Positions 6,915-64,000 of a stretch of 64,000 nucleotides of DNA are shown here, piece by piece. The first letter of the stretch is position 1; the number at the start of each line of letters is the position of its first letter. This DNA comes from a virus. The translations under genes and the position numbers were made by a program. The notes below the pieces were generated by a model. The model had not been told where the DNA came from, did no database searches, and was given only the letters and a program-made list of their open reading frames with translations. The stretch lies in IMG/VR virus record IMGVR_UViG_3300042542_004852, one strand, 5' to 3'.

Positions 6915-7950
6915 TCAAATAAAAGGCTCTCTTGAAAAGCTAGGTTACACTCTAAAAGATTTTGGAAATCATTGGAGAACAAAAGCTCTGTATCGCGGCG
7001 GCGATAATCCAACAGCGATTAAAGTGTATAAGAATAGCGGAGTATGGCAAGATTATGTTCAAGGCAATACTTCTATGCCTCTTGCTAAACTGGTTGAATT
7101 GACGCTGCAAACTAAAGACCCAAAAATCATCAAGCAGTATGTTAGTTATAACCAAGAAGTTCAAACGCATTATATCGCAAAAGAAAAAATAGAGATGGAT
7201 AAAATTTACCCCAAAGAATGCTTAAATAGACTTTTTCCAAACTTCTCTTTTTACAAGAAGCGCGGAATCAGTGAAGAAACACAGAAGCTTTATCAGTGTG
7301 GTCTGGCTGGAAATGGCCAAATGTATCAAAGAATAGTGTTTCCGATTTATGAATCTAACGCAGAAATCTTTGGATTCAGCGGTAGAAAAATTAACGACAA
7401 CAACGAATCTCCCAAGTGGAAGCATGTTGGCACAAAAACAAAATGGGTTTACCCAGCATTTGTTCCAAGAGAGCAAACAGTTGATTCTATTATTGACGAA
7501 AAGAAAGAAGTGATTTTGGTAGAAAGTATTGGAGACAGCTTGGCTTTGACAGAAGAAGGTTATCTAAATAACCTCGTTACTTTTGGATTAGACTGCTCTC
7601 CAGCGCTCTTGAACTATCTCTGCTCCAAAGACCTGCGTAAGATCATTATCGCCACAAATAACGATAATGAGAAGCAAAAGAATCATGGTAAAATCTCTGC
7701 TATGAAAAACTATATGAAACTCAGTCAGTTTTTTGACTTTGAGCAATTATCAGTTCAATTACCTTTGGCTAATGATTTTGGAGAAATGAGACAAAAAGAA
7801 ATGTCATTTAAGGACTGGTATCAAGAGTCAAATGTTTCTCAAGAAGCTAAATTAACTGATTATAAAGATTTCTGCTCTGCCAATCGTACTTCTTTTCAAG
7901 AAAAGAAATTGGAGAAATTTTTTAAAAAACTACAAAACTTTGGAATCTAA
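6904..7950 (+). CDS. DnaG-like primase (Toprim)
   Basis: KRGIS, RIVFPI, GFSGR, PKWKH, ILVESIGD, ATNND; follows the helicase gene. Confidence 0.85.
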   Translation: MNSDQIKGSLEKLGYTLKDFGNHWRTKALYRGGDNPTAIKVYKNSGVWQDYVQGNTSMPLAKLVELTLQTKDPKIIKQYVSYNQEVQTHYIAKEKIEMDKIYPKECLNRLFPNFSFYKKRGISEETQKLYQCGLAGNGQMYQRIVFPIYESNAEIFGFSGRKINDNNESPKWKHVGTKTKWVYPAFVPREQTVDSIIDEKKEVILVESIGDSLALTEEGYLNNLVTFGLDCSPALLNYLCSKDLRKIIIATNNDNEKQKNHGKISAMKNYMKLSQFFDFEQLSVQLPLANDFGEMRQKEMSFKDWYQESNVSQEAKLTDYKDFCSANRTSFQEKKLEKFFKKLQNFGI

Positions 7951-8977
7951 AAACCGAACATCACTATCAGCAAGTCGCATCAAAACTGCTCAATCATGCA
8001 GTTGGAAATATTGGTGTTCTTATCGTTTAAAATTACCTGATAAAAGCAATGACGGCGCTCGAAGAGGGTCAATATGTCACTTAGTTTTTGAATGCTTGGG
8101 CGAAAACCGCCACAAAAAACACTTTTCTCTCATCATCAAGAAAAGAGATGTCTTTTCTAGCAAAGCTATCGAAAGACTAATTCGCAAACATGCGAAAAAA
8201 GAAGGAGTTAATGACGAAGATAATATCAAGCAGATTTGTGATATGACACTTGCTGGTCTTCAATATGACTTCTTTGGAGCAGAAAATGGCAAACCTTCAG
8301 AAGCTTTGAGCGAGCAAGATTTTGAAATTGATGTTAAAGAAGGCAAGTTTGATTACAGAATCAAAGGCTTTATTGACAAACTCTTTCTTTATAAGAAGCA
8401 GGGGTTAGCTATCATCCGCGACTTTAAAAGCAGTAAAGAAGTTTTCAAGGGAAAAGACCTTGAGAATAACTTACAAGATTTGATGTATTCTCTTGCTGTT
8501 AAAAAGCAATTTCCAGACTATAACAATCGCTGTTCTGAATTCCTATTTTTAAAATTCTTACCAAATGAAAAAGGCGTTGTTAGGATGCCAGCACTAACAG
8601 AAGAAGAGTTAGACGGTTTTCAATCTGAGCTAACTGAAATCCAAAAATACTTGGATAATTTTGATATTCAAACGGCATTTTCTAATTTAGCAGCTAGACA
8701 AGATTACCCCAAAGATAATTCTTTTAGTGGTCCTTTACAATGTGGAAGAGCCATTCGCAAAGGACAACTCAAAAAAGATGGCAGCTTAATGTATCATTGC
8801 CCATATAAATTTGATTTTTACTATTATAAAATTTGCGACATGAAAGGGGTAATGATTGCCTCATGTTTCTTGGAGGACTTTGACGAATACATTAAAAAGT
8901 ATCCCGAAGATAAATATCTTTATCAGACGATGTTCTATAGCGGCTGTCCAGCATTCAATAAAGGAATTGACAGATAG
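7940..8977 (+). CDS. PD-(D/E)XK exonuclease, Cas4/AddB-like
   Basis: LSASRI...C, G..H..FE, GFIDKL, IRDFKS, C-terminal cysteines. Confidence 0.8.
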   Translation: MESKNRTSLSASRIKTAQSCSWKYWCSYRLKLPDKSNDGARRGSICHLVFECLGENRHKKHFSLIIKKRDVFSSKAIERLIRKHAKKEGVNDEDNIKQICDMTLAGLQYDFFGAENGKPSEALSEQDFEIDVKEGKFDYRIKGFIDKLFLYKKQGLAIIRDFKSSKEVFKGKDLENNLQDLMYSLAVKKQFPDYNNRCSEFLFLKFLPNEKGVVRMPALTEEELDGFQSELTEIQKYLDNFDIQTAFSNLAARQDYPKDNSFSGPLQCGRAIRKGQLKKDGSLMYHCPYKFDFYYYKICDMKGVMIASCFLEDFDEYIKKYPEDKYLYQTMFYSGCPAFNKGIDR

Positions 8978-51552: not shown

Positions 51553-53415
51553 TTAGACAAAAAATGGAGTGAATGTAGCTTCTGTATCTTCTGCTTTAAA
51601 ATTCATCATGTCAAAGTAGGTTTGAACCATCCAGTTGCCTAGAACCAAAGAAGAGTAAGAGTCACGACGAGCTTTATCTGCGCCATTTTGCCTCTTTAGG
51701 TTTGATGGCAAGTCGAAAGACTGTGTGCCTTGGCTAGTTGTTGAAACTTGAATAAGAGCACACTCAGCCTTGGTCAAATCAATCATGTCTTTCTGGTGCT
51801 CGATAAAATCAATCATTTTTGCGGCTGTATTCTTTTCATCCGCATCTGCTACTCTCAAGAACCTGATTTGGTCAATGGGAATGCTCTTGCCTCTTTGGCG
51901 TTGATAGTCATCATTAACTGCGCTGCAAGCAAACCAAATTCTCTTATGATCAAAAGAAGACTGCAATGATTCGTTTGCAAACCGAATCCACTGTGAAGTT
52001 GGGCGGCGAAGATGGCATATCTTTTTAGACGATAAGTTGTATTGATTGCGAGCTTCGCGCAAAGATGCGTCGTAGTTTTGAACATCATCAAAGTCTGCGT
52101 CAAAGCAGTCGATTTTTAAATCATTACTTTTGAACAAGTCGCTTTCGTTGCAAGCGTTTAGGAATTGTACACCGCCATTGTAGTCACCAACAATGCAAAC
52201 AATATTGAAGTTTGTTAAGATATAATAAAAATAAAAAATATGATCTTTCAGGCGAGTGCCAGAAATAGCATAGCTATGAACAACTGTTCCTATTCGCTTT
52301 TCTTTATTGATTTTAATAACATGCATGCCAAAGTCGTCAGAGCTTTCGCTTTCAGACCAAGATGGGTCAAAAGATAAAATATATTCATCGTTTGGTTCGC
52401 CAGCAATTTCCACACATTGACCTTGACCATCTTCAATGGTGCAAGCTGCCATTTTGCTAACTTTAAAATAACCGCTGGAATCATCAGTGAATATCGAGCC
52501 AAACTCGCGATCAAACTGAGACTGACTCAATGTTGATTTTGCTTGCTGAATTAAAGACTGATCGTACAACTGAGTTGGCGCACAGTCATAACTCAAGTGC
52601 ATGATAACGCGATGTGCCACATCACTTTTTTCAGGATTTAAAATAAGATGCTCGTATTGCTGATATAGTTTATACAAGTATTCAAATTTGTAGGAGGCAG
52701 AAGAAAGCCCAATTATTTTATTGTTCGGCCATTGAGCGCGATCTTCTTCTTGCATTTTGCCAGTTTCAATCAATTCTGTTTCTAGGTTATAAATTTCCTG
52801 ACGCTCTGTGGGGTTTTCCACAACAGATAAGAAAGGCAAAATAACCTCATTAAAGATTCGTTCTGGCATGAGCAAGAACTCGTCAATAATCATTCTTTGA
52901 AAACGGAAGCCGCGTAGTTTTTCGCCATCACCAAGAGGCAGCGCAGTGATCTTGCTGCGGCCAATTTCCATGACCCACTGATCGTTATTTTTAGAAACTC
53001 TTGTGACTGCCTCGGCGAACATAGAGGCTTTTGGCGTTTTCATAATGTCTTCAATCTTGCTGAAAATCATTCTACTCTGACGAAAGCTTTTAGATATGAT
53101 GCCAATATGCACTCCTTGATGCAGAACAGCGTCTAGAGCAGCGAATAAACCTGTTGTAAAGCTTTTACTCTGGCCACGACTCCAAACGCCTAGAAAGTAA
53201 TCTGTGAGCATCATGGACTTGATTGCCATGTGCTGAAATGGAAACAATTTAATACCAGTCAATAATTCGCAAGTGAAAGACGGATTCTCCTTGAGAAACT
53301 TGTACAGCATGATCTTAGCCTCTCTCTCTTCTAAAAAACCTTTCGCATCAAGGATTTCTTGATTGATGTTTAGAAAGTGTTTTCTTCTTTTTTGATTGCC
53401 TTCAGTCCAAGCCAT
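51553..53415 (-). CDS. Terminase large subunit
   Basis: PFQ, SRGQSKSF, LRGFR, IIDE, GLSSA, nuclease-domain SFDPS and RRDSYS. Confidence 0.9.
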   Translation of the reverse strand: MAWTEGNQKRRKHFLNINQEILDAKGFLEEREAKIMLYKFLKENPSFTCELLTGIKLFPFQHMAIKSMMLTDYFLGVWSRGQSKSFTTGLFAALDAVLHQGVHIGIISKSFRQSRMIFSKIEDIMKTPKASMFAEAVTRVSKNNDQWVMEIGRSKITALPLGDGEKLRGFRFQRMIIDEFLLMPERIFNEVILPFLSVVENPTERQEIYNLETELIETGKMQEEDRAQWPNNKIIGLSSASYKFEYLYKLYQQYEHLILNPEKSDVAHRVIMHLSYDCAPTQLYDQSLIQQAKSTLSQSQFDREFGSIFTDDSSGYFKVSKMAACTIEDGQGQCVEIAGEPNDEYILSFDPSWSESESSDDFGMHVIKINKEKRIGTVVHSYAISGTRLKDHIFYFYYILTNFNIVCIVGDYNGGVQFLNACNESDLFKSNDLKIDCFDADFDDVQNYDASLREARNQYNLSSKKICHLRRPTSQWIRFANESLQSSFDHKRIWFACSAVNDDYQRQRGKSIPIDQIRFLRVADADEKNTAAKMIDFIEHQKDMIDLTKAECALIQVSTTSQGTQSFDLPSNLKRQNGADKARRDSYSSLVLGNWMVQTYFDMMNFKAEDTEATFTPFFV

Positions 53416-54325
53416 TTAATAATCCTCCGTTAATATAAAATTGTAAATCTACGTTCCAAAGCTTTTTGCCATGAACCAAAAGAAGAGGAATAAGTTTTTC
53501 ACTGTTCTTGCGATTGCTGGAGAATACAAACTGGCAGCAGTCTTTAAATTCCATTTGCAAAGCTCTCATATTGTGGTAGATGTAAGCAAGATTGCTCTTG
53601 TGAGAGTTTTTGCCATTGTTTTTCTGTATCTGTTCAAAGTCGCTTTCCACAACCACAAAAATGAAACACTCCTGCTCCCGCGCACGCGAGAGTTCACGCT
53701 TGAATCGTTCCAAGTTATCTTCGCTCACTGTGGATTTAAAATCTGATTCAGACTTGCGATCAACAAACGTATAATTAAAATACTTTGGCTCAACACAGTA
53801 ATCTCCCAAATCCAGCTTTAGAAATTCGCTGTTCTTGAAGGATAGGGGTTGCTGCTCTCGCGTGTCAATGAAAATTTTTGGGTTTGGATTGGCGAGGCAT
53901 TCTTTTGGAAACTTATCGCCAAACATAAGCTTGGAGCCGCAACTCTCAGTTGCCGCAGAGTAACTGCCAAAAAACTTTTTAAAAACTGAAATACTTGGCA
54001 AACCATAACTCTTCAGGATAACTTCGCATGGTGCAAATCCATCCTTGGTCTTTGAACAAAGCATGTCTAAAAGAATCATACAAACTCCCAAATCTTTATT
54101 GTATTGTTGATTAAAGAACTTATCTTGATTCTCACTACTGAGAAAATAAGTTTGAAAATACTGCTCTTTGTTTTTAAAAGGCAATAAATCGCCAGTAAGC
54201 AAGTCTTTGCGCCTAAAATGCTTTACATAATAATCATGTAAAAACATGTCATGCTTTTTGATGTGAGCATGGAGACTGCGTTCTGAATCGAACCCTTGTT
54301 GACATTCTAAACAATTAAATAACAT
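53402..54325 (-). CDS. C2H2 zinc finger + ERCC4/XPF-like nuclease
   Basis: CLEC...HIKKH; IDTREQ, LDLGDY, VDRKS..DF, RFKREL. Confidence 0.8.
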   Translation of the reverse strand: MLFNCLECQQGFDSERSLHAHIKKHDMFLHDYYVKHFRRKDLLTGDLLPFKNKEQYFQTYFLSSENQDKFFNQQYNKDLGVCMILLDMLCSKTKDGFAPCEVILKSYGLPSISVFKKFFGSYSAATESCGSKLMFGDKFPKECLANPNPKIFIDTREQQPLSFKNSEFLKLDLGDYCVEPKYFNYTFVDRKSESDFKSTVSEDNLERFKRELSRAREQECFIFVVVESDFEQIQKNNGKNSHKSNLAYIYHNMRALQMEFKDCCQFVFSSNRKNSEKLIPLLLVHGKKLWNVDLQFYINGGLLNGLD

Positions 54326-55367
54326 CTTCTTTTGAAACACCAAGAACTCTCGCTTTCCATTCGCCCATGCTCTCTAGTCTATTAGCTTCTTCGCTAATTA
54401 TCTTCTTTTGCATCTCTGCAATCTTGACCATGTTTTTGCGCTCTTCCTCATCCTGAAACAACTGAACCAAAGAAATAATTGATGCATTTTCTTTGTATTT
54501 ATTTTTCATTCTTTCGGCGCGATCACCTTGTAGTTTTTTAGTGAGATTTTCAATGCGCCCTTCGCATTGATGGTATTCGCTGGACTTTGCCTTGATGATT
54601 TCAGCAAGCCTCATGGTTATATCTTGTTGATCATCAATCTCATCAAATTGATCGTTAAGTTTATTCAAGTGCTTGCCAACAACTTCCAAGTTGATGATTT
54701 CTTTGCACACGTTCATGTAAAGATTCAGTTCATCAGAGGATAGGTCTGGCTTGTCCCAAGTTAAACGAATAAATTCTTCTTCAAAAAGAATGCGATCTTT
54801 TTGCGACAAGTAATTATTCATGATTGTCACAAAGCGAGAATTAGAAAGATTAATAGTGAGCTTATCAATGCAAATCTTATACTGGCGAGAAATTTTGTTT
54901 TCGTCTAGAGTCAAACCTGTAGCATCATTGATCTTTTTTAAGACGCGGCTAGAAGCTTTTGGCGGAATGTACTCTGTGAGCAGTGCAGACTCAGAATTAC
55001 CAACAAGATCAGGGTTCACTAGCCTAATGTAGTCAAGAATCGCTCTTTGTTCCATGCCAAGCTTTTTAACTTCGCGATCTTGGAAAATTAATTCAGCAAT
55101 GCGAAAAGTGGACGTTCCAGCTTGACTCTGCAAAAGAGCAAACTGTTTTTGAGCGTCATTTAATTCAATGCTTTCGCTCTTTTCTTTTTTTGTGGTTGTG
55201 AAGGAGTAATTGTTATCAATTAAAAATTGCCTAACCAAACGGCCTTCTTTTTTTCTTCCATCCAAAGACTGATCATTGAAACACCTTTTAGTGAGTTCGT
55301 TGAGATCAGTGATTTGCAAATAGTTTTCGCTAATGAATTTTTTTTGCTCTTCTGTGAGATCGCTCAT
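54315..55367 (-). CDS. Hypothetical protein, candidate terminase small subunit
   Basis: HTH-like N-terminus plus coiled coil, upstream of terminase. Confidence 0.45.
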   Translation of the reverse strand: MSDLTEEQKKFISENYLQITDLNELTKRCFNDQSLDGRKKEGRLVRQFLIDNNYSFTTTKKEKSESIELNDAQKQFALLQSQAGTSTFRIAELIFQDREVKKLGMEQRAILDYIRLVNPDLVGNSESALLTEYIPPKASSRVLKKINDATGLTLDENKISRQYKICIDKLTINLSNSRFVTIMNNYLSQKDRILFEEEFIRLTWDKPDLSSDELNLYMNVCKEIINLEVVGKHLNKLNDQFDEIDDQQDITMRLAEIIKAKSSEYHQCEGRIENLTKKLQGDRAERMKNKYKENASIISLVQLFQDEEERKNMVKIAEMQKKIISEEANRLESMGEWKARVLGVSKEDVI

Positions 55368-57412: not shown

Positions 57413-58321
57413 TTAATAAATATTTTCTCTGATTGTTACTGAACCATTTAAAGAATTTCCTTGCTGCTGAGTGAGTGATTGACCAACGATTTTGCCGCTC
57501 ACATCAATGGCAAAAACATAATCACTGCGGGGATTAAAAGAAGTTCCAGTGATAAAATGCCTGAAAGGAGAAAACCTAAAACTCACAAAAGAACCATCGC
57601 CGCTGCCATTAAAATCAATAATTTGTCCCACATTTTCGCCCTCAATGGTGACTGTGCGCTCAACGCTGTTTAAAAGAACTCTCTCTGGTGTTTTATAGCC
57701 AATGGTGTAAACGGGCGTGCGAGAGCAGGAAACGCTGATTTGAGCGCTCTTCTTGCTTTGAGGTAGTGGCTCTAGGTTGCCAGTGATGCCCACTGCTAAA
57801 GCATGCAAAGAATCAAAATAAGCTCCTGTTCCAGCTTGCTTCAGAAGATTTGGCGCATCTGCCATGCCAGTAAATGTTGTGCCCTCAATTGTGTCAACAT
57901 CGTAACTATTAAAATCGGCGCTAAAAATGATTGGCTGATAGGGAGTGATTTGAATCGAGTAAGAATTAAGGTGACAGTCTTTAAACAAGAAATTGCCCAC
58001 TCTAATCTGATGTCCTGTTTCAAATTCACCAGTGAGCGCCAAAACTCCTGTTTGAGAAACGCTGCGAGAATTCGCGTTCTCCCCAATCATGGGAAACCAA
58101 GAGAAAGAAACTTTGGCAGCTAATGGTGCTGTGGGTGCAAAATCGTTTCTGATGGGAGTCTTGCCCAAATATTTTCGCGGCTCTAGAGATGAGTCAAAAT
58201 TTATGCTCACTTCATTTGCAGCCATCAAGTCGCTGTTTTCGTCTCCTGTTAGAGGAGCTTGATTGACTGTGCTGAAATTTGCGAAAACGGGAACGTTTGT
58301 GTATTTAATGAATTTTGACAT
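57413..58321 (-). CDS. Tail-tube-like structural protein
   Basis: Start MSKFIKY (58321); RTPVYTIG motif shared with tail tube paralogues. Confidence 0.5.
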   Translation of the reverse strand: MSKFIKYTNVPVFANFSTVNQAPLTGDENSDLMAANEVSINFDSSLEPRKYLGKTPIRNDFAPTAPLAAKVSFSWFPMIGENANSRSVSQTGVLALTGEFETGHQIRVGNFLFKDCHLNSYSIQITPYQPIIFSADFNSYDVDTIEGTTFTGMADAPNLLKQAGTGAYFDSLHALAVGITGNLEPLPQSKKSAQISVSCSRTPVYTIGYKTPERVLLNSVERTVTIEGENVGQIIDFNGSGDGSFVSFRFSPFRHFITGTSFNPRSDYVFAIDVSGKIVGQSLTQQQGNSLNGSVTIRENIY

Positions 58322-58349
58322 TGACCTTTTCTTTTTCTTATGATAAATT
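58321..58349 (+). promoter_or_regulatory. sigma70-type promoter of the deaminase gene
   Basis: TTGACC-17bp-TAAATT with extended TG; ATG 7 nt downstream. Confidence 0.55.
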
Positions 58350-58355
58350 ACACCA

Positions 58356-58763
58356 ATGAACAAGAGTTTAGAAAAGTGCGTGGAAATAACTAAAGGACTA
58401 AAGCCTCACAAACAGAATGGCCGCAGTTTTCATGCCACTTTTATTTTTGACAAGAAGAGACTGCTCAGCATTGGCTATAACGACTATAAAAAGCATCATC
58501 CCTATCACAAGCTGGGCAAGTACATTGGCTACAAAACCAACCCTGAAAAATACCAGCCCTGCTTGCATTCTGAGATTAGTGCCTTGTTGAAACTGGGTGA
58601 AGAAGATTTGAGTCGTTGTGTTTTTGTTAATGTGAGAATAGACCAGAGAGGCGAACTAGCCCTAGCAAAGCCTTGCCAAAATTGCGAAAGAGTTTTGCGG
58701 CAGGTTGGTTTTAAAAAGCTTTTTTATTCTTCTGAAAAAGGGTTTGTGGAAATGATGGGTTGA
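58356..58763 (+). CDS. Zn-dependent cytidine/dCMP deaminase-like protein
   Basis: SIGYN, HSE and PCQNC motifs. Confidence 0.85.
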   Translation: MNKSLEKCVEITKGLKPHKQNGRSFHATFIFDKKRLLSIGYNDYKKHHPYHKLGKYIGYKTNPEKYQPCLHSEISALLKLGEEDLSRCVFVNVRIDQRGELALAKPCQNCERVLRQVGFKKLFYSSEKGFVEMMG

Positions 58764-58900
58764 TTTTTTTTCTTGTTTTAATAGCACTGGGTTTTTTTAG
58801 AGGGGGGTGTTTTTTTATTAATTAGGGGGGGTAGTGAGTGCAAGATGGTGAGGAGCATGGGGGGAGATGAATGGTTGTTTTTAAGAGTGGAGATTGAGAA

Positions 58901-58963
58901 AACCCACCCCTGGCGCGTTTAGGAGATTTCCTTAGGTCAAATTCTTAGGAAATGGGGGTGGGT
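58901..58963. repeat. Inverted repeat enclosing three 13-bp-phased YTTAGG boxes
   Basis: ACCCACCCC ... GGGGTGGGT; boxes at 58918, 58931, 58944. Confidence 0.7.
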
Positions 58964-59161
58964 GCTTTTCTTAGTCAACACTAGGGCAGTTACCTACGCC
59001 GCCCTAATGGGGGGCAAGCTGTCAAACGAAAAAAGAAAAAACAAATAGTGGCACTTGGCACACTAATTACCATAAAAGAAAAACACTAAAAATAAATGCA
59101 CGTTGCGCTTGCAGGTCTGCGGATTTGTGGCAATATATAAACAGTTAACCAAACGAACAAC

Positions 59162-59365
59162 ATGCAAAACGAAATCAACCTGAACGCCCTCGAAACCAAA
59201 ACTCTCACCGCTCTTCAGTGGGTTATCATCCGCAACGCCTTGCAAGATAAAATGGAGGAATTCGACAGCGCTGCCAGTTGGGCAGAATCCAAGGGCTACA
59301 ACAGCGAAACCTACTACCGCAACGAATACGCGAAACGCTCTCAAATCTTGAAAGCTATCGCATAA
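59162..59365 (+). CDS. Small early protein (helical, AESK/YYRNE family)
   Basis: Promoter-like TTGCAG-16-CAATAT upstream; similar to 62779-62943. Confidence 0.75.
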   Translation: MQNEINLNALETKTLTALQWVIIRNALQDKMEEFDSAASWAESKGYNSETYYRNEYAKRSQILKAIA

Positions 59366-59371
59366 AATCGC

Positions 59372-59399
59372 TTGCGCGTTTAACCTTTCTCTCTACATT
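59372..59399 (+). promoter_or_regulatory. Early promoter, 16-bp spacer
   Basis: TTGCGC-16-TACATT. Confidence 0.65.
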
Positions 59400-59405
59400 C
59401 TAATT

Positions 59406-59654
59406 ATGGAAACAAAACAAATGCACAAGGTCTTAGTTCTGGAACAGCACAGCGATGCTGAAAGATTCTCCATCGCGGGATGGGAACGCAGCGCTTCGGT
59501 GCGCCGTTCATGGAATGAAATGGTTGAAAAATTCCCCGAATGCGTGCGCGAAGTGTCTGTGAACGCTTGCCCTTGCTACGGTTCCTCTCACTGGAAACAA
59601 GGCAAAGACGGACGAATTGAAATCGTCTCTTTGAACTGTGATTCAAGCGATTAA
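59406..59654 (+). CDS. Small early protein
   Basis: Own promoter, probably leaderless. Confidence 0.7.
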   Translation: METKQMHKVLVLEQHSDAERFSIAGWERSASVRRSWNEMVEKFPECVREVSVNACPCYGSSHWKQGKDGRIEIVSLNCDSSD

Positions 59655-59658
59655 TCGC

Positions 59659-59686
59659 TTGCGCGTCCCTCTTTCCCCTCTACTAT
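59659..59686 (+). promoter_or_regulatory. Early promoter, 16-bp spacer
   Basis: TTGCGC-16-TACTAT. Confidence 0.7.
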
Positions 59687-59695
59687 CCTCTTGCC

Positions 59696-59908
59696 ATGAA
59701 CAACGTCTCCCTTGCCACCCTTCCAGAACTTGACCTCCGCTCCATTGAACTTGACGGCGTGGACTTTCGCGACTATCCCGACTTCTGTGATGCTTTTATC
59801 AGCTATGCGGAAGCAAAGGACGGGACACCTCTGACAAGCGAGCAACTGGAAATCTTGAATGAAGATTCCGACTTGATTCACACGCTTGCGCATGATTCCT
59901 GCCACTAA
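59696..59908 (+). CDS. Small acidic phage protein (DGVDxRDYPDFCDAFI family)
   Basis: Own promoter; motif recognised as recurrent in phage hypotheticals. Confidence 0.8.
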   Translation: MNNVSLATLPELDLRSIELDGVDFRDYPDFCDAFISYAEAKDGTPLTSEQLEILNEDSDLIHTLAHDSCH

Positions 59909-59922
59909 TCGCGCAAAATCGC

Positions 59923-59950
59923 TTGCGTTCCCCTCTTTCCCCCCTATACT
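59923..59950 (+). promoter_or_regulatory. Early promoter, 16-bp spacer
   Basis: TTGCGT-16-TATACT. Confidence 0.7.
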
Positions 59951-59971
59951 CTCAGCACCCCGCCCCCCACT

Positions 59972-60193
59972 ATGAAAAGCATTCAATTCAAAACCTTCAC
60001 GCTCTACATTCAATTTTCAGGCTTTAGCCAATCAAAGAAACACATTCACCTTCCCTTCTATGTCAAGGCATGGCGCAAGCATCCAGCCTATGACAAGCAT
60101 CTTCAAATTGCCATCTCTAACGCTGCGGTCAGCACTGGCCTTTCTCCCTCTACTAAGCCTGTCTGTTACTCGCTACTTGCGGGAATGTGCTAA
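59972..60193 (+). CDS. Small early protein
   Basis: Own promoter. Confidence 0.65.
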   Translation: MKSIQFKTFTLYIQFSGFSQSKKHIHLPFYVKAWRKHPAYDKHLQIAISNAAVSTGLSPSTKPVCYSLLAGMC

Positions 60194-60200
60194 AAAGCAC

Positions 60201-60228
60201 TTGCGCCCCTCTTTCCCCTTTCTACTCT
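60201..60228 (+). promoter_or_regulatory. Early promoter, 16-bp spacer
   Basis: TTGCGC-16-TACTCT. Confidence 0.7.
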
Positions 60229-60237
60229 ACTCCTGCC

Positions 60238-60420
60238 ATGAACGCCCCCCTCTCCAAACGTGAAAGATTCGCCCTCCGAACATCCAAGGCCAGCGGCTTG
60301 CCAAACGGCTTTGGCCCGCGCCTAGTTAACCCTGCGCCCTACGTCTGCCAGTGTGCAAGTTGCAAGGTTGAACGTGAACTCGGCCTTTCCCTTCGCACTC
60401 CAAAGCAGTGCGAAGCATAA
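60238..60420 (+). CDS. Small basic protein with CxCxxC motif
   Basis: MNAPLSKRERF...CQCASC; start placed after the promoter. Confidence 0.65.
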   Translation: MNAPLSKRERFALRTSKASGLPNGFGPRLVNPAPYVCQCASCKVERELGLSLRTPKQCEA

Positions 60421-60451
60421 GCAAACAACCTAAGCAACAACACTACCCACT

Positions 60452-60616
60452 ATGCAATTCTCACCTACTGCCGAAGACATGCATGCGCTCGCTAGCGAGC
60501 ACGACGCACGCTGTGATTCACCTAATCCCGAATGGGATGATTTCCTACGGGAGCAGGAGGATAAGTTCTTAGACGCCTTCTATGAGAGGGCAGTGGAAAA
60601 GTCCTACGAACTTTGA
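60452..60616 (+). CDS. TAEDMHA-family acidic peptide 1 (54 aa, not in ORF track)
   Basis: MQFSPTAEDMHALASEHDARCDSPNPEWDDFLREQEDKFLDAFYERAVEKSYEL. Confidence 0.8.
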   Translation: MQFSPTAEDMHALASEHDARCDSPNPEWDDFLREQEDKFLDAFYERAVEKSYEL

Positions 60617-60659
60617 CTAAGCCTAGGCTAGGAAACTCTTAAGCCCCTTAAGTGGGGAG

Positions 60660-60710
60660 CCTAAGAACTTTACCTAGGCCAGGGGCCTTGGGGTAGGTAA
60701 AATTCCTAAG
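60660..60710 (+). repeat. 51-bp four-box dyad element, copy 1
   Basis: CCTAAG-aacttta-CCTAGG...GGTAGG-taaaatt-CCTAAG; TTTACCTA-17bp-TAGGTAAA. Confidence 0.9.
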
Positions 60711-60854
60711 ACTCTAAGCCTAGTTCACCTAAGACAATCCCTTGCCTTTCCCTAAGACGATTCTCTTGTCAAGAGAAACAAAAGAAATCTTTTCTGCAAT
60801 CTTGGCATGATAATTTCCATAAATGAAAAAGATGAAAACAAAACAAAAAAGAAT

Positions 60855-60882
60855 TTGCGGTTCTCTTGCCATGTGGCATAAT
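60855..60882 (+). promoter_or_regulatory. Early promoter, 16-bp spacer
   Basis: TTGCGG-16-CATAAT with TG and an upstream A-tract. Confidence 0.7.
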
Positions 60883-60887
60883 AAGTC

Positions 60888-61166
60888 ATGGAAACGAAAA
60901 CACTGCTTACAAACGAACAAGTCCTCGCCCTTCTCAACAACGTCGCCCCCCGCGCCGTGACCATCACGAAAGATGAAACTCCGCTGGAAAACATTCTCGC
61001 TTCTCTCACTTCTTTCAACTACGAGAAAGAGGACGGCGTGACTCGCGTGGAAGGCGCAACTTTCCAGCACGTTGCAATCTCAAAGAACACTGGCAAGCAG
61101 TATGCCACGTTTAAAACGTCCGATGGAAAGTTCAAGTCTTTCTTCACTGCTCAAATTCAATTCTAA
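60888..61166 (+). CDS. Small early protein (paralogue of 62991-63275)
   Basis: Own promoter; LLTNEQVLALL...NTGKQYAT...KFKSF. Confidence 0.75.
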   Translation: METKTLLTNEQVLALLNNVAPRAVTITKDETPLENILASLTSFNYEKEDGVTRVEGATFQHVAISKNTGKQYATFKTSDGKFKSFFTAQIQF

Positions 61167-61203
61167 TTTGCCAAGCCAGAAAAACCCTTCACCTTCTAAC
61201 CCT

Positions 61204-61446
61204 ATGAAAAACAAAATCCCCATGCAAGAAAACATCACAATCTCCCGCGAAACTTTTTCCACTCTGCTTTCTTTCGCTAAGCGCGAGCAGACAATCTGCG
61301 ACAACAACGCCAGAAACGCCCTTAAGAAAGTCGAGGAACTCCCGAACGACATTTTCTGGCAGGACTCGGTAAACTTCTGGAGGCAGGAAAGCCAGAACGC
61401 CCAGAACACCTACACAAAAGCCCTAGAAGAAGCGCAGACGCTCTAA
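61204..61446 (+). CDS. Small helical early protein (FWRQE)
   Basis: Start at ATG 61204 or 61222. Confidence 0.7.
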   Translation: MKNKIPMQENITISRETFSTLLSFAKREQTICDNNARNALKKVEELPNDIFWQDSVNFWRQESQNAQNTYTKALEEAQTL

Positions 61447-61454
61447 TCGGGCCT

Positions 61455-61505
61455 CCTAGGTAATTTACCTAGGGGAAGGCCCCTGGCATAGGTAAAATCC
61501 CTAAG
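61455..61505 (+). repeat. 51-bp four-box dyad element, copy 2
   Basis: CCTAGG-taattta-CCTAGG...CATAGG-taaaatc-CCTAAG. Confidence 0.9.
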
Positions 61506-61528
61506 ACTCTTACCCTAGGAGTCTTACC

Positions 61529-61588
61529 TAAGAAGTCTATTTACTATTAGAGCATTTAGTATTTACTATTAGGGCGTTTCGAATTTGC
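61529..61588 (+). repeat. 60-bp upstream module B, copy 1
   Basis: 52/60 identical to 61991-62050; tandem TATTTACTATTAG at 22-bp period. Confidence 0.85.
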
Positions 61589-61620
61589 AGTTTGATGAAT
61601 AAAAAACATGAAAAAAAGAT

Positions 61621-61648
61621 TTGCGCGTTCTTTGTTTTCTGTTATTCT
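61621..61648 (+). promoter_or_regulatory. Early promoter, 16-bp spacer
   Basis: TTGCGC-16-TATTCT with TG. Confidence 0.7.
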
Positions 61649-61686
61649 ATGCGCGTAGTCAGTTAACCATTAATATATCCTCTGTT

Positions 61687-61884
61687 ATGCAATTCTCTAT
61701 CACCGCTGAAGACATGCACGCCGCCCGCCCCGCTTATGACCTTGATGAGGTCAACGGTTTTGAGGGCGAAGAACCCTCCGACAATCAAGAGTTTGACACT
61801 CATGATGATTATGTTGAGCCGATGGAGGACCAGTGGCTTGATAGCTACTACGAAAGCCAGACCGAATGCGACTTCGGTGAATGA
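61687..61884 (+). CDS. TAEDMHA-family acidic peptide 2 (65 aa)
   Basis: MQFSITAEDMHAARPAYDLDE...EDQWLDSYYESQTECDFGE. Confidence 0.8.
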   Translation: MQFSITAEDMHAARPAYDLDEVNGFEGEEPSDNQEFDTHDDYVEPMEDQWLDSYYESQTECDFGE

Positions 61885-61890
61885 CCTACG

Positions 61891-61915
61891 AGGGCGGCGA
61901 AAGCCGCCCTTTTTT
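61891..61915 (+). terminator. Intrinsic terminator
   Basis: AGGGCGGC-GAAA-GCCGCCCT-TTTTT. Confidence 0.9.
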
Positions 61916-61925
61916 ATATACATTG

Positions 61926-61976
61926 CCTAGGAGGTTTACCTAGGCCGCGCCCCCTGGGATAGGTAAAATCCCTAAG
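61926..61976 (+). repeat. 51-bp four-box dyad element, copy 3
   Basis: CCTAGG-aggttta-CCTAGG...GATAGG-taaaatc-CCTAAG. Confidence 0.9.
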
Positions 61977-61990
61977 ATTTTCGCCTTAGG

Positions 61991-62050
61991 TAAGAAGTCT
62001 ATTTACTATTAGGCGCTTTAGTATTTACTATTAGGAGATTTCGAGTTTGC
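61991..62050 (+). repeat. 60-bp upstream module B, copy 2
   Basis: See 61529-61588. Confidence 0.85.
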
Positions 62051-62079
62051 TATTTAGGGAATAAAAAATCATTTTTTTC

Positions 62080-62107
62080 TTGCGCGGACGAGGTAAACCG
62101 CTATTCT
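62080..62107 (+). promoter_or_regulatory. Early promoter, 16-bp spacer
   Basis: TTGCGC-16-TATTCT. Confidence 0.7.
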
Positions 62108-62115
62108 ATAGCCCT

Positions 62116-62247
62116 ATGAACGAAATGAACTTCTCCACTACCGCCGAAGATATGCACGCCGCCGCCGCTGAGTTCAACGAGTTTTACGACTTGTTGCGCG
62201 AGGAGGCATGGGAGCATCAAGAAGCTTCTCTCACGCAAAACAACTAA
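62116..62247 (+). CDS. TAEDMHA-family acidic peptide 3 (43 aa, not in ORF track)
   Basis: MNEMNFSTTAEDMHAAAAEFNEFYDLLREEAWEHQEASLTQNN. Confidence 0.75.
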   Translation: MNEMNFSTTAEDMHAAAAEFNEFYDLLREEAWEHQEASLTQNN

Positions 62248-62258
62248 ACTTAAATCTT

Positions 62259-62456
62259 ATGATGACACCCGACGAATATGATCCCCCCTCTTATGGGGGC
62301 ACTCCCACGCAGGAAGCCCATGCAGAAATGACTCTTTTGTTTGGCGCGGAAAAACCAACTCGCGCTTGGATTCTTACGGACTTTGATGTGTGGGCACCGA
62401 ATCCTTTTTACTGTGGGCCTCCACAGCCTCATCCAGAAGACGATGACCATTGGTGA
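62259..62456 (+). CDS. Small phage protein (AWILTDxDVW..NPFY.GPP.PHPE family)
   Basis: Start at ATG 62259 after the preceding stop. Confidence 0.75.
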   Translation: MMTPDEYDPPSYGGTPTQEAHAEMTLLFGAEKPTRAWILTDFDVWAPNPFYCGPPQPHPEDDDHW

Positions 62457-62464
62457 GCATAAGC

Positions 62465-62515
62465 CCTAGGAGAAATACCTAGGGCACGCCCCTTGGCGTA
62501 GGTAAAATCCCTAAG
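62465..62515 (+). repeat. 51-bp four-box dyad element, copy 4
   Basis: CCTAGG-agaaata-CCTAGG...CGTAGG-taaaatc-CCTAAG. Confidence 0.9.
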
Positions 62516-62585
62516 AGAAAACAAAAAAACTTTCCTGCAATCTTGGCATGCTAATTACTAGAATAAAAACAAGTTAAAAAAGGCA

Positions 62586-62613
62586 TTGCGCGAATCTCTT
62601 TTTCTGTTATCTT
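62586..62613 (+). promoter_or_regulatory. Early promoter, 16-bp spacer
   Basis: TTGCGC-16-TATCTT with TG. Confidence 0.7.
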
Positions 62614-62619
62614 GTGGCC

Positions 62620-62748
62620 ATGAAGAAAATCACATTTCGCAAGCCAAAAATCCTCTCCTTCCGCCTCTCCACTCGCAAAGTCGGCGGCATTCGTTTCGTG
62701 CGCGTGGGAAAACTTGTCTTTTCTTTCTGCGTGTCAAAAAAGGCTTGA
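62620..62748 (+). CDS. Very basic 42-aa peptide (not in ORF track)
   Basis: MKKITFRKPKILSFRLSTRKVGGIRFVRVGKLVFSFCVSKKA; ATG 7 nt after the -10. Confidence 0.7.
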   Translation: MKKITFRKPKILSFRLSTRKVGGIRFVRVGKLVFSFCVSKKA

Positions 62749-62772
62749 CTTCTCTCCTTTCTCGCTTATCTT
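62745..62772 (+). promoter_or_regulatory. Early promoter, 16-bp spacer (exact duplicate of 62940-62967)
   Basis: TTGACTTCTCTCCTTTCTCGCTTATCTT. Confidence 0.8.
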
Positions 62773-62778
62773 ATCCCC

Positions 62779-62943
62779 ATGAACGAAGAAATCTTCACCA
62801 CAATCTTTATCTCACTTACGCAACGCTTTGACCTTGCCTGCAAAGAAGTTGCCGAGTCGAAAAATGAAAAACTCAAAGACTACTGGCGGGAAGAAGCGGA
62901 CAAAGCTCTTCAAGCTCGTCGATATATTGTAGAAAAGATTTGA
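62779..62943 (+). CDS. Small helical protein, 54 aa (not in ORF track)
   Basis: MNEEIFTTIFISLTQRFDLACKEVAESKNEKLKDYWREEADKALQARRYIVEKI. Confidence 0.75.
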   Translation: MNEEIFTTIFISLTQRFDLACKEVAESKNEKLKDYWREEADKALQARRYIVEKI

Positions 62944-62967
62944 CTTCTCTCCTTTCTCGCTTATCTT
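62940..62967 (+). promoter_or_regulatory. Early promoter, 16-bp spacer (duplicate)
   Basis: Identical 28 bp to 62745-62772. Confidence 0.8.
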
Positions 62968-62990
62968 TAACCCGTAACCAAAACAACACT

Positions 62991-63275
62991 ATGAAAGACC
63001 TCATCACCAAAGAAAACCTAGTCGCCCTTCTTCGTTCTAAGAAAGAAGCAGTCATCGAAGCCCTGAACAATAAACACGTTGTTTACCTGAACGAAGGAAA
63101 TTCAAGCGTCAAAACCAACGGCGTGCGCAGTTTCACCATCAAGGACATTGAAGGCGTGAACACTGGCAAGGCTGGCCGCACCTACATCACGGCCAAGGTC
63201 ATCGACCATGATGACGGCGATGCCGAAAAATATCGTTCCCTTCACATCGCGGGCCTTGAACTCGCTTGGGAATAG
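62991..63275 (+). CDS. Small early protein, possible SH3/WYL-like beta fold
   Basis: MKDLITKENLVALL...RTYITAK...KYRSLHI. Confidence 0.75.
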   Translation: MKDLITKENLVALLRSKKEAVIEALNNKHVVYLNEGNSSVKTNGVRSFTIKDIEGVNTGKAGRTYITAKVIDHDDGDAEKYRSLHIAGLELAWE

Positions 63276-63281
63276 TCTTTT

Positions 63282-63345
63282 GAAGAGAGACGGCAATCGG
63301 AAAATGCCCCTAATAGGCTAGTAGGTTCAAACCCTACCCTCTTCT
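63282..63345 (+). ncRNA. tRNA-like element lacking an anticodon loop
   Basis: Acceptor GAAGAG/CTCTTC, D arm GGCA-ATCGGAAAA-TGCC, stub CCT-AAT-AGG, T arm GTAGG-TTCAAAC-CCTAC. Confidence 0.65.
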
Positions 63346-63367
63346 TTACTTTTAATCAATAAAAAAT

Positions 63368-63625
63368 ATGCTACGCCTAGAATCCTCCACTACTTCTGTA
63401 AATGCCGCTTGGCATTATCTCTTGGAAAATAAATGCAGCTTCAGCGCTCCTGTGCAAATGCTTTCTTCTCGCGCCTTGCAAAAGGCAAAGCTCAAACCCA
63501 TCGCGCCGATTGAAACCAGAGTAAAAATCCTCTCTAGGGCTAACGCTAAAAAGAAAGCCAAAACTTTCTTGCTTAAAGCAGAGGAAAAAATTTCAAACCT
63601 CGTAAAAAAAATCTCTAGGCGGTGA
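63368..63625 (+). CDS. Small basic protein
   Basis: 85-aa ORF after the tRNA-like element. Confidence 0.6.
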   Translation: MLRLESSTTSVNAAWHYLLENKCSFSAPVQMLSSRALQKAKLKPIAPIETRVKILSRANAKKKAKTFLLKAEEKISNLVKKISRR

Positions 63626-63634
63626 TAAGACAAA

Positions 63635-63671
63635 GGGGGTGGAGAGGTTAGTGTTGTTCCTCTCTGCCCCC
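63635..63671 (+). terminator. 13-bp hairpin, possible terminator
   Basis: GGGGGTGGAGAGG-11nt-CCTCTCTGCCCCC (two G-U pairs); weak U tract. Confidence 0.5.
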
Positions 63672-63679
63672 TAAGTTTT

Positions 63680-63730
63680 CTTAGATGATTTACCTAGGCC
63701 AGGCGGCCTGGGGTAGGTAAAATTCCTACG
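63680..63730 (+). repeat. 51-bp four-box dyad element, copy 5
   Basis: CTTAGA-tgattta-CCTAGG...GGTAGG-taaaatt-CCTACG. Confidence 0.85.
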
Positions 63731-63842
63731 CTCAAATGGCAAATTCCCTACCGTTTCTTAAGAAAGATGCCTAAGAAGTCTATTTAAGACTTTCCTATTT
63801 AGTATTAGGGGGTTTCGAATTTGGATTTTTATCTTTTTCTAT

Positions 63843-63870
63843 TTGACAGAAGCGCTTTTGCCTCTATAGT
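63843..63870 (+). promoter_or_regulatory. Early promoter, 16-bp spacer
   Basis: TTGACA-16-TATAGT; ATG 7 nt downstream. Confidence 0.8.
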
Positions 63871-63876
63871 AGAAAC

Positions 63877-64000
63877 ATGAACCACACATTAGAAACCGCA
63901 GGCAACCTACTCCGTCAAATCAGCGAAGAAAGCAGAGGCGTGGCCTTGACAAAGGAACAAGCGCACATTTTCAACGCAGTGTTCTACAGGGGCATGCTGG
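63877..64000 (+). CDS. Small early protein, 3'-truncated
   Basis: MNHTLETAGNLLRQISEESRGVALTKEQAHIFNAVFYRGML... Confidence 0.65.
   Translation, partial: MNHTLETAGNLLRQISEESRGVALTKEQAHIFNAVFYRGML

Follow-up and report, generated by a model that had tools for sequence, protein, structure and literature searches.

Gene units at one end of a 64,000-nucleotide stretch of viral DNA (IMG/VR record IMGVR_UViG_3300042542_004852; the whole stretch is hereafter called the window) are separated by a near-palindromic 51-bp dyad. The reading preferred here, to which we assign a probability of about 0.4, is that this dyad may serve as a DNA-level operator or insulator, bound by a candidate sequence-specific protein and seated in a module of terminator, dyad and promoter. 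Five copies in the same orientation were verified on the + strand where the original prediction, made from the letters of the window alone, had placed them. The close position of copies 2 and 4 behind a stop codon is likewise borne out. The left half-site that the prediction reported at 58980-58998 is a stand-alone TAGG-N7-CCTA site, and a second such site exists. The sites in the window are as follows.

60660..60710, + strand: dyad copy 1, reading CCTAAG-N7-CCTAGG-core-GGTAGG-N7-CCTAAG
61455..61505, + strand: dyad copy 2, starting 8 nt past the stop codon of the 61204-61446 gene
61926..61976, + strand: dyad copy 3, with a canonical terminator directly 5' of it
62465..62515, + strand: dyad copy 4, starting 8 nt past a stop codon
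63680..63730, + strand: dyad copy 5, with degenerate outer boxes (CTTAGA, CCTACG) and a core identical to the perfect consensus CCAGGCGGCCTGG
58982..58996, + strand: stand-alone TAGG-N7-CCTA site at the head of the first early unit
61516..61530, + strand: stand-alone TAGG-N7-CCTA site, 11 nt 3' of copy 2

The pattern TACCTAGG-N15-TAGGTAAAAT matches the window five times with 0 mismatches, against 0.00 matches expected from 100 dinucleotide-preserving shuffles. Relatives were found by pattern scans of IMG/VR and metagenomes, and further lineages through a protein-guided search with a shared DUF932 gene; the metagenome scans and the loose viral scans returned mostly chance single matches, and only multi-copy loci or full-pattern matches were kept. 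Arrays of the related phages hold 8-10 copies each, and the 54 distinct copies obtained align without gaps. The claimed constant distance between the inner arms holds in these as in the window, TACCTA-N17-TAGGTA being found in all five window copies and all 54 distinct relative copies. The proposed four-box formula describes most copies and fails at the outer boxes of copy 5 (CTTAGA at 63680, CCTACG at 63725), and the inner-arm letters differ in copy 4, which reads AATACCTA instead of TTTACCTA. The 17-bp core had been described as free. This description does not hold, as the consensus of the relatives is a palindrome, CCAGG-CSG-CCTGG, of which window copies 2-4 are degraded versions.

Conservation across the 54-copy alignment reveals which letters matter. 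Invariant are the TA of box 1, the TACCTA and TAGGTA of the inner arms and the TA of box 4; the CC of box 4 is nearly invariant, the GG of box 1 is kept in just 39-47 of the 54 copies, and the N positions and the dyad centre vary. This pattern indicates that the real units are two TAGG-N7-CCTA sites, with centres 32 bp apart and the GC-rich core lying between them. All 11 TAGG-N7-CCTA sites of the 64-kb window fall between 58982 and 63714, and the first 58.9 kb has none. The dyad itself is restricted in the same way to an early-gene array of about 10 kb: neither the remaining 58.9 kb of the window nor the relatives outside their arrays contain it. Each dyad is accompanied within 120 nt by about 1.8 additional C[CT]TA[AG]G boxes at preferred offsets, where about 0.23 would be expected, an excess of roughly eightfold.

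The CCTAGG box stands out against the general composition of the genome. Between positions 1 and 58900 the sequence lacks 33 of the 64 palindromic hexamers, has no CCGG where 75 would be expected, and is 4-5-fold depleted in GTAC and ACGT; a complete relative, G006 (loci L258-L265), lacks 23 palindromic hexamers and CCGG. This avoidance suggests heavy type II restriction pressure. The array keeps 32 of the 33 avoided hexamers at zero, and CCTAGG occurs in it 10 times against 1 expected, which marks the box as a selected exception. The TAG triplets of the boxes (element positions 3-5, 16-18 and 35-37) occupy all three frames of the + strand, so that, owing to the 13- and 19-nt box spacing, each dyad halts translation in every forward frame; this all-frame stop is probably a by-product.

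The array is a block of rightward genes encoding 40-280 aa, and in every array all dyad copies are co-oriented with the genes. Most of these genes have their own promoter, in which a -35 hexamer of the TTGCGC or TTGACT type and a TAnnnT -10 hexamer are set 16 bp apart, with the ATG a few nucleotides further on. The dyads had been placed between the end of one unit and the promoter of the next, and this arrangement is confirmed, since terminators, where present, lie 5' of the dyad and promoters 3' of it. In 16 of 48 contexts, box 1 follows the end of a strict canonical terminator by 4-8 nt, and none of the 48 contexts has one within 150 nt downstream of the dyad. The terminators preceding many dyads are homologous and stand at a fixed distance. 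The most compact units consist of a terminator, 11 nt, the dyad, 24 A-rich nt and the -35 hexamer. With the terminator 5' and the -35 hexamer 24 nt after box 4, the dyad of such a minimal unit lies in mostly untranscribed spacer. Elsewhere one of two upstream modules, A or B, intervenes between dyad and promoter. The context features in the window are listed below.

61890..61919, + strand: canonical intrinsic terminator with a 9-bp GC stem, GAAA loop and T tract, separated from copy 3 by about 7 nt
63635..63671, + strand: 14-bp hairpin (-27 kcal/mol) closing the unit that precedes copy 5
60777..60838, + strand: upstream module A (TTGGCAYG...TAATT motif), between dyad and promoter; also at 59030-59091 and 62518-62579
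61544..61596, + strand: upstream module B (paired TATTTACTATTAG, then GTTTCGAATTTG); also at 62006-62058 and 63780-63832
62745..62772, + strand: example of a per-gene sigma-70-like promoter, TTGACT-16-TATCTT, with the ATG 6 nt later (near-leaderless)
62940-62967 and 63843-63870, + strand: further per-gene sigma-70-like promoters

Taken together, the dyad would be a composite operator in which two 15-bp TAGG-N7-CCTA sites surround a GC-rich CCAGG-N3-CCTGG palindrome, with auxiliary CYTARG boxes nearby. Its fixed geometry, the invariant TAGG and CCTA, the extra boxes and the lack of a U tract after any window copy agree with the claim of protein recognition over simple termination or duplication, and the operator alternative offered in the original prediction is the best supported of its readings. 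A separation of 32 bp corresponds to about three helical turns, which would put both sites on the same face of the helix. What the sequences show is the anatomy of the dyad, its location, its confinement to the array, the way it is conserved and its variants in other lineages; that a protein binds it, which protein this would be and in which direction it would regulate are inferred. In the proposed model, the module (terminator, dyad, A-rich stretch, promoter) would separate early units transcribed by the host RNA polymerase, and a dimer of dimers or a larger oligomer would bridge both sites at every unit boundary. Such a protein could control all early units jointly, through shut-off or activation, or could insulate their promoters from read-through. 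As a by-product, dyads and promoter repeats may act as points of homologous recombination at which units are reshuffled between phages, in the manner of the PeSL (promoter/stem-loop) elements of T4-like phages.

More distant relatives add a further line of evidence, as they keep the architecture (about 51 bp, A/T arms, a GC-rich centre of 17-19 bp, restriction to the array) with other letters. Within a genome the letters of the element are near-uniform, and between lineages they differ. The lineage variants, the first of which keeps the TACCTA-N17-TAGGTA arms, are the following.

L246/L053: inner palindrome longer by 1 bp per side and linkers shorter by 1 nt each, with N17 kept
L247: 18-nt core in all 8 copies
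L248/L249 (G007-G009): 14-18 copies of CCAGGG-N4-CCCTGG, in the array only, beside other hairpins, with the centre in both orientations and without TACCTA arms
L250 (including the complete 147.7-kb G006): TCTAACAG-N-TTTTTAT-[19-nt C-rich core]-ATAAAAA-N-CTGTTAGA, 51 bp, in the array only; the left outer box is often absent and tandem CTAACAG boxes lie close by
L256: TTTTGTGGTT, a 24-nt spacer and AACCACAAAA; the left arm merges with the terminator T tract and the right arm lies 6-16 nt from the -35 hexamer

One architecture with lineage-specific, genome-uniform sequence resembles the pattern of operator/regulator specificity groups. Judged from the sequences, the uniformity within a genome may stem from gene conversion among the copies or from their co-evolving with a trans-acting factor. 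In the L246/L053 lineage the arm distance is kept despite the growth of the stem, as would be expected if both arms were contacted at a fixed distance; a hairpin would not require this.

Several observations weigh against a protein-bound operator. HTH_3 and ParB_N have no match in G006 or in the partial relatives, and the small array proteins are without matches to DNA-binding families. The distance from dyad to promoter ranges from about 24 to more than 150 nt, because module A or B may intervene, and is thus unlike a classical fixed-position activator site. The 18-nt core of L247 means that the arm spacing is not absolute across lineages. The GC palindrome of the L248 type persists without arms, which may make the arms an add-on to an older element. 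Gene conversion among repeats could produce uniformity within a genome without any co-evolving protein. Furthermore, the raised divergence of the core and the flips of its central triplet, described below, show DNA that behaves as a hairpin-prone palindrome. One candidate binder was rejected: the 80-aa protein encoded at 61204-61446, considered as a ribbon-helix-helix protein, is predicted by AlphaFold to form two long helices in a plain helical hairpin, and an Atlas search with it gave no usable match.

Folding of the nucleic acid itself offers another explanation, which is possible although unlikely: the dyad could work in read-through transcripts as an RNA hairpin (a 3'-end stabiliser, an RNase III-type processing site or a terminator lacking a U tract), or in DNA as a single-strand hairpin or a cruciform. 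Self-complementarity reaches 84% in the 54-copy alignment, and in 29 of 47 cores the inner stem is perfect over 5 bp or more, compared with about 3.1 bp in shuffles. Copies 2 and 4, which begin 8 nt past a stop codon and have no other terminator, must be transcribed. Orthologous copies differ in the 17-nt core at 13.6% of positions, about twice the rate of the alignable flanks (7.1%; arms 6.4%), and the central triplet of the core flips between CGG and CCG or GGG and CCC, as expected of a hairpin forming in vivo. The core is therefore a hairpin-prone mutational hot spot between arms that are held fixed. Consistent with folding, the additional nucleotide of L247 falls in the loop, the L248-type palindrome stands among other hairpins and upstream of a U-run, and most stem mismatches are A.C pairs on the + strand, equivalent to G.U on the - strand. 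Against selection for a fold, the alignment contains no compensatory covariation beyond one register shift. The pairs changed on both sides number two and reflect the 1-nt outward shift of the inner palindrome in one clade, and sliding the partner by +1 outscores the true pairing. The paired fraction does not exceed that of shuffles (62/500), and positions 18/19 and 33/34 are systematically non-complementary. Folds predicted from single copies disagree, with unremarkable z-scores in 3 of 5 copies, and neither a U tract nor an Rfam covariance-model match accompanies the dyads. Canonical terminators always lie 5' of the dyad and promoters 3', so that the element often would not be in RNA at all. 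The asymmetries at unpaired positions and the extra flanking boxes would have no role in a hairpin, and N17 is kept when the stem lengthens. A selected hairpin was accordingly set aside for want of covariation support and because folds are inconsistent among copies, and a known RNA family because Rfam gave no match. The same applies to an intrinsic terminator, as no U tract is present, AAAAT-CCTAAG follows the right arm, a T-rich arm precedes the GC core and true terminators lie 5'. A sigma-70 promoter (TACCTA-N17-TAGGTA, or TAAAAT as a -10) was also rejected, since the hexamers are off consensus and the final T of TAAAAT is not kept, relatives reading TAAAAC, TAAACT or TAAACC. Quite improbable is another kind of DNA transaction, such as a hairpin promoter for an N4-like virion RNA polymerase, a polar barrier to replication forks or transcription, a gyrase or topology site between strongly transcribed units, or a cos- or pac-like nuclease target. 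The 5-bp stem and 3-nt loop of the consensus core, a geometry present in 29 of 47 cores, resemble N4 early promoters, in which a stem of 5-7 bp with a 3-nt loop is recognised by a virion-packaged single-subunit RNA polymerase, and all copies share the orientation of transcription. A/T arms around a GC-rich centre of 17-19 bp resemble cos-type sites, a gene for an ERCC4 nuclease adjoins the large terminase gene, and tandem strong promoters would be expected to place torsional stress at these boundaries. However, PF00940 (T7/N4-type RNA polymerase) has no match in the relatives, a result tempered by the control genomes, which gave none either. Sigma-70-like promoters are already present in every unit. 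Many copies have a degraded core hairpin, which the L250 and L256 types lack altogether, a genome with ten cos-like sites would destroy itself, and nothing connects the ERCC4 protein to the element.

It also seems rather doubtful that the dyads are chiefly recombination substrates, whether as PeSL-like hot spots of homologous exchange or as sites of an integron-like system with an unrecognised recombinase. The array is hyperplastic, with unit content and order varying between lineages, and some changes fall at dyads. In the more diverged L206, the unit with the 94-aa and 62-aa genes follows the f9 unit, which elsewhere it precedes, and colinearity with g003/g004 restarts within 2 nt of a dyad's left edge. 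The dyad at this junction looks chimeric, its left half resembling the dyad that follows that unit elsewhere and its right box the dyad that precedes the next one. One relative lacks exactly dyad 3, its module and one 43-aa gene, the missing stretch beginning 15 nt 5' of the dyad. Core variants swap among orthologues faster than the flanks diverge, and three of four close-relative contigs end inside the array. On the other hand, when synteny breaks were compared with the dyads, most indel and mosaic boundaries fell at TTGCGC/TTGACT promoter repeats inside units (59415-60199, 61178-61216, 62744 and 62772-62933) and few at dyad edges. A coincidence with a dyad edge is weak evidence in any case, as a conserved island always ends a BLAST block. 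Single genes also move between units, and close relatives conserve both the order of the dyads and their idiosyncratic cores. The co-occurring recombinase proposed in the original prediction did not emerge: PF00589, PF00239 and PF01797, a search covering tyrosine, serine and Y1-HUH enzymes, have no match in the 100%-complete relative G006 or the partial relatives G005 and G007-G009, and no recombinase domain was found among the scanned open reading frames of the window. Recombination alone, moreover, leaves the invariant letters unexplained. Of the shuffling that had been proposed, the hyperplastic array and the L206 unit moved at a dyad edge fit a PeSL-like process; dyads as the usual breakpoints are not supported. 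By analogy with PeSL, the overall pattern would reflect exchange between homologous stretches wherever a regulatory repeat is conserved. Lytic phages could also possess a dedicated system for shuffling cassettes, functionally analogous to an integron, in which whole early or anti-defence units with their promoters are cut and rejoined in the fast-evolving, flip-prone GC core by a recombinase of an unrecognised family or by a host enzyme. Such a system would explain the chimeric dyads, the core exchange between copies and the dyad-bounded relocation of units; we consider it very improbable.

Comparison with known systems places the dyad beside, and apart from, several types of repeated element. 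PeSL of T4-like phages are promoter and terminator stem-loop motifs that flank small non-essential early open reading frames in hyperplastic regions, and indels and replacements between relatives arise at these repeated motifs through homologous recombination (PMC2839356, PMC4122927). The array shares with them a terminator-dyad-promoter module between reading frames of 40-280 aa, a variable gene content and promoter repeats that mark most breaks. It differs in adding to the sigma-70 promoter and terminator stem-loop, which are all that PeSL contain, a 51-bp dyad with invariant TAGG and CCTA between the two, and in belonging to an unrelated, siphovirus-like phage lineage. The stoperators of Cluster A mycobacteriophages, which are temperate, are asymmetric sites of 13 bp, scattered genome-wide, to which an immunity repressor binds as a monomer (PMC9283540, PMC6550527). 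Like the dyads, they occur in many copies in short gaps among small early genes, in one orientation and with lineage-specific variants, and two array genes are homologous to gp82 and gp88 of mycobacteriophage L5. Unlike stoperators, the 51-bp dyad is limited to one array of about 10 kb in an apparently lytic phage, and the complete relative has no integrase and no repressor-like helix-turn-helix match (HTH_3).

The four-box imperfect palindrome with a more variable centre, set in one orientation between small gene units, also recalls integron attC sites. The claim that the dyads are integron-like tyrosine-recombinase sites is nevertheless not supported. No IntI or other tyrosine recombinase was found in the relatives or the scanned window reading frames, none of the 54 copies contains RYYYAAC/GTTRRRY core sites, and the length is fixed at 51 bp, compared with 57-141 bp for attC. 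Integron cassettes are promoterless and transcribed from a common Pc, whereas these units have their own TTGCGC/TTGACT-N16-TAnnnT promoters and many their own terminators, and their breakpoints lie mostly away from the element. Among protein-bound sites, the inverted arms recognised by phi29 p4 have 15 bp between them, and the NtrC sites at glnAp2 are 32 bp apart. The dyad resembles such sites in having short inverted arms with a long spacer free of contacts, or two dyad sites about 32 bp apart on one face and upstream of promoters, and differs from them in its unrelated sequence, its variable distance to the promoter and the lack of a homologous regulator among the proteins searched. Repetitive extragenic palindromes and bacterial interspersed mosaic elements (REP/BIME) of enterobacteria are likewise GC-rich extragenic palindromes located after genes or terminators, multicopy and with hairpin-associated variability. 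In contrast to these, the dyads are phage-borne, confined to one array, of single orientation and fixed geometry, and no RAYT (Y1 transposase, PF01797) is present in the relatives. A mimic of a host repeat or CRISPR repeat was rejected, as the consensus pattern has 0 matches in one genome each of 185,579 species. The dyad family appears to be undescribed in the literature searched.

The phage itself is an uncultured tailed virus encoding a 2745-aa tape measure protein, tail proteins, a large terminase and a DnaE-type polymerase. It has no close cultured relative: 50,697 phage records gave no DNA match, and identity between its polymerase and those of cultured phages does not exceed about 31%. 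Beyond the window, the array of the relatives (L002 4108-4896, 5160-5999 and 6599-6958, with equivalents in L206) encodes homologues of L5 gp88 and gp82, DUF932 and DUF7717. The DUF932 protein is the sole gene common to all lineages examined, and apart from these four families the small array proteins have no informative Pfam or PHROG match. Three paralogous small acidic proteins, one per unit (60452-60616, 61687-61884 and 62116-62247), share the head M(Q/N)FSxTAEDMHA; members of this family also occur in the L206, L248 and L249 arrays, some of them far longer (up to 211 aa). The product of the nuclease gene at 53402-54343 (- strand) is 313 aa long and combines an ERCC4 nuclease domain with a C2H2-type zinc finger. 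The gene lies directly upstream of the large terminase gene, which it overlaps, in the place usually held by the small terminase. A T-arm-like GGTTCAAACCCTACC is present in 63282-63452, and ARAGORN reports no tRNA in 58000-64000.

Further observations concern the modules and the relatives. The module A motif, TTGGCAYG-N4-TAATT/TTGY, recurs at L247 1922-1968 and at L248 381-423 and 1653-1688. It can be likened to the sigma-54 -24/-12 element (TGGCAC-N5-TTGC), with an imperfect -12 part; if this likeness is real, the dyads would occupy the positions of enhancer sites. The module B family grows, in relative L006/L007 (reverse complement), into a tandem ATTATTA-type array placed right behind the last dyad, where the strand switch and a minus-strand tRNA adjoin it, and may represent an origin or a further set of operators. 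In G006, about 23 kb are repeated at the ends with an offset of about 124.4 kb, and the letters of the two copies are not all the same. Either the genome has a long terminal repeat, or a circular or concatemeric genome was over-assembled. Among the phage tRNA genes just past its early array, L248 has a group I intron at 7896-8146 (Rfam RF00028, 60.5 bits).

Bound by a protein, the dyads would place all early units, of host-takeover or anti-defence genes, under the control or insulation of a single factor. The clade concerned consists of widespread uncultured freshwater phages of about 125-135 kb. Its window, L246, L247, L248, L250 and L256 types form a natural series of specificity variants for studying the co-evolution of operator and regulator. 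With this array, the PeSL notion that conserved regulatory punctuation also serves as a scaffold for recombination in the shuffling of accessory genes reaches an unrelated group of phages. Additionally, the motif flags early-gene arrays in metagenomic phage contigs and accounts for the assembly breaks found there.

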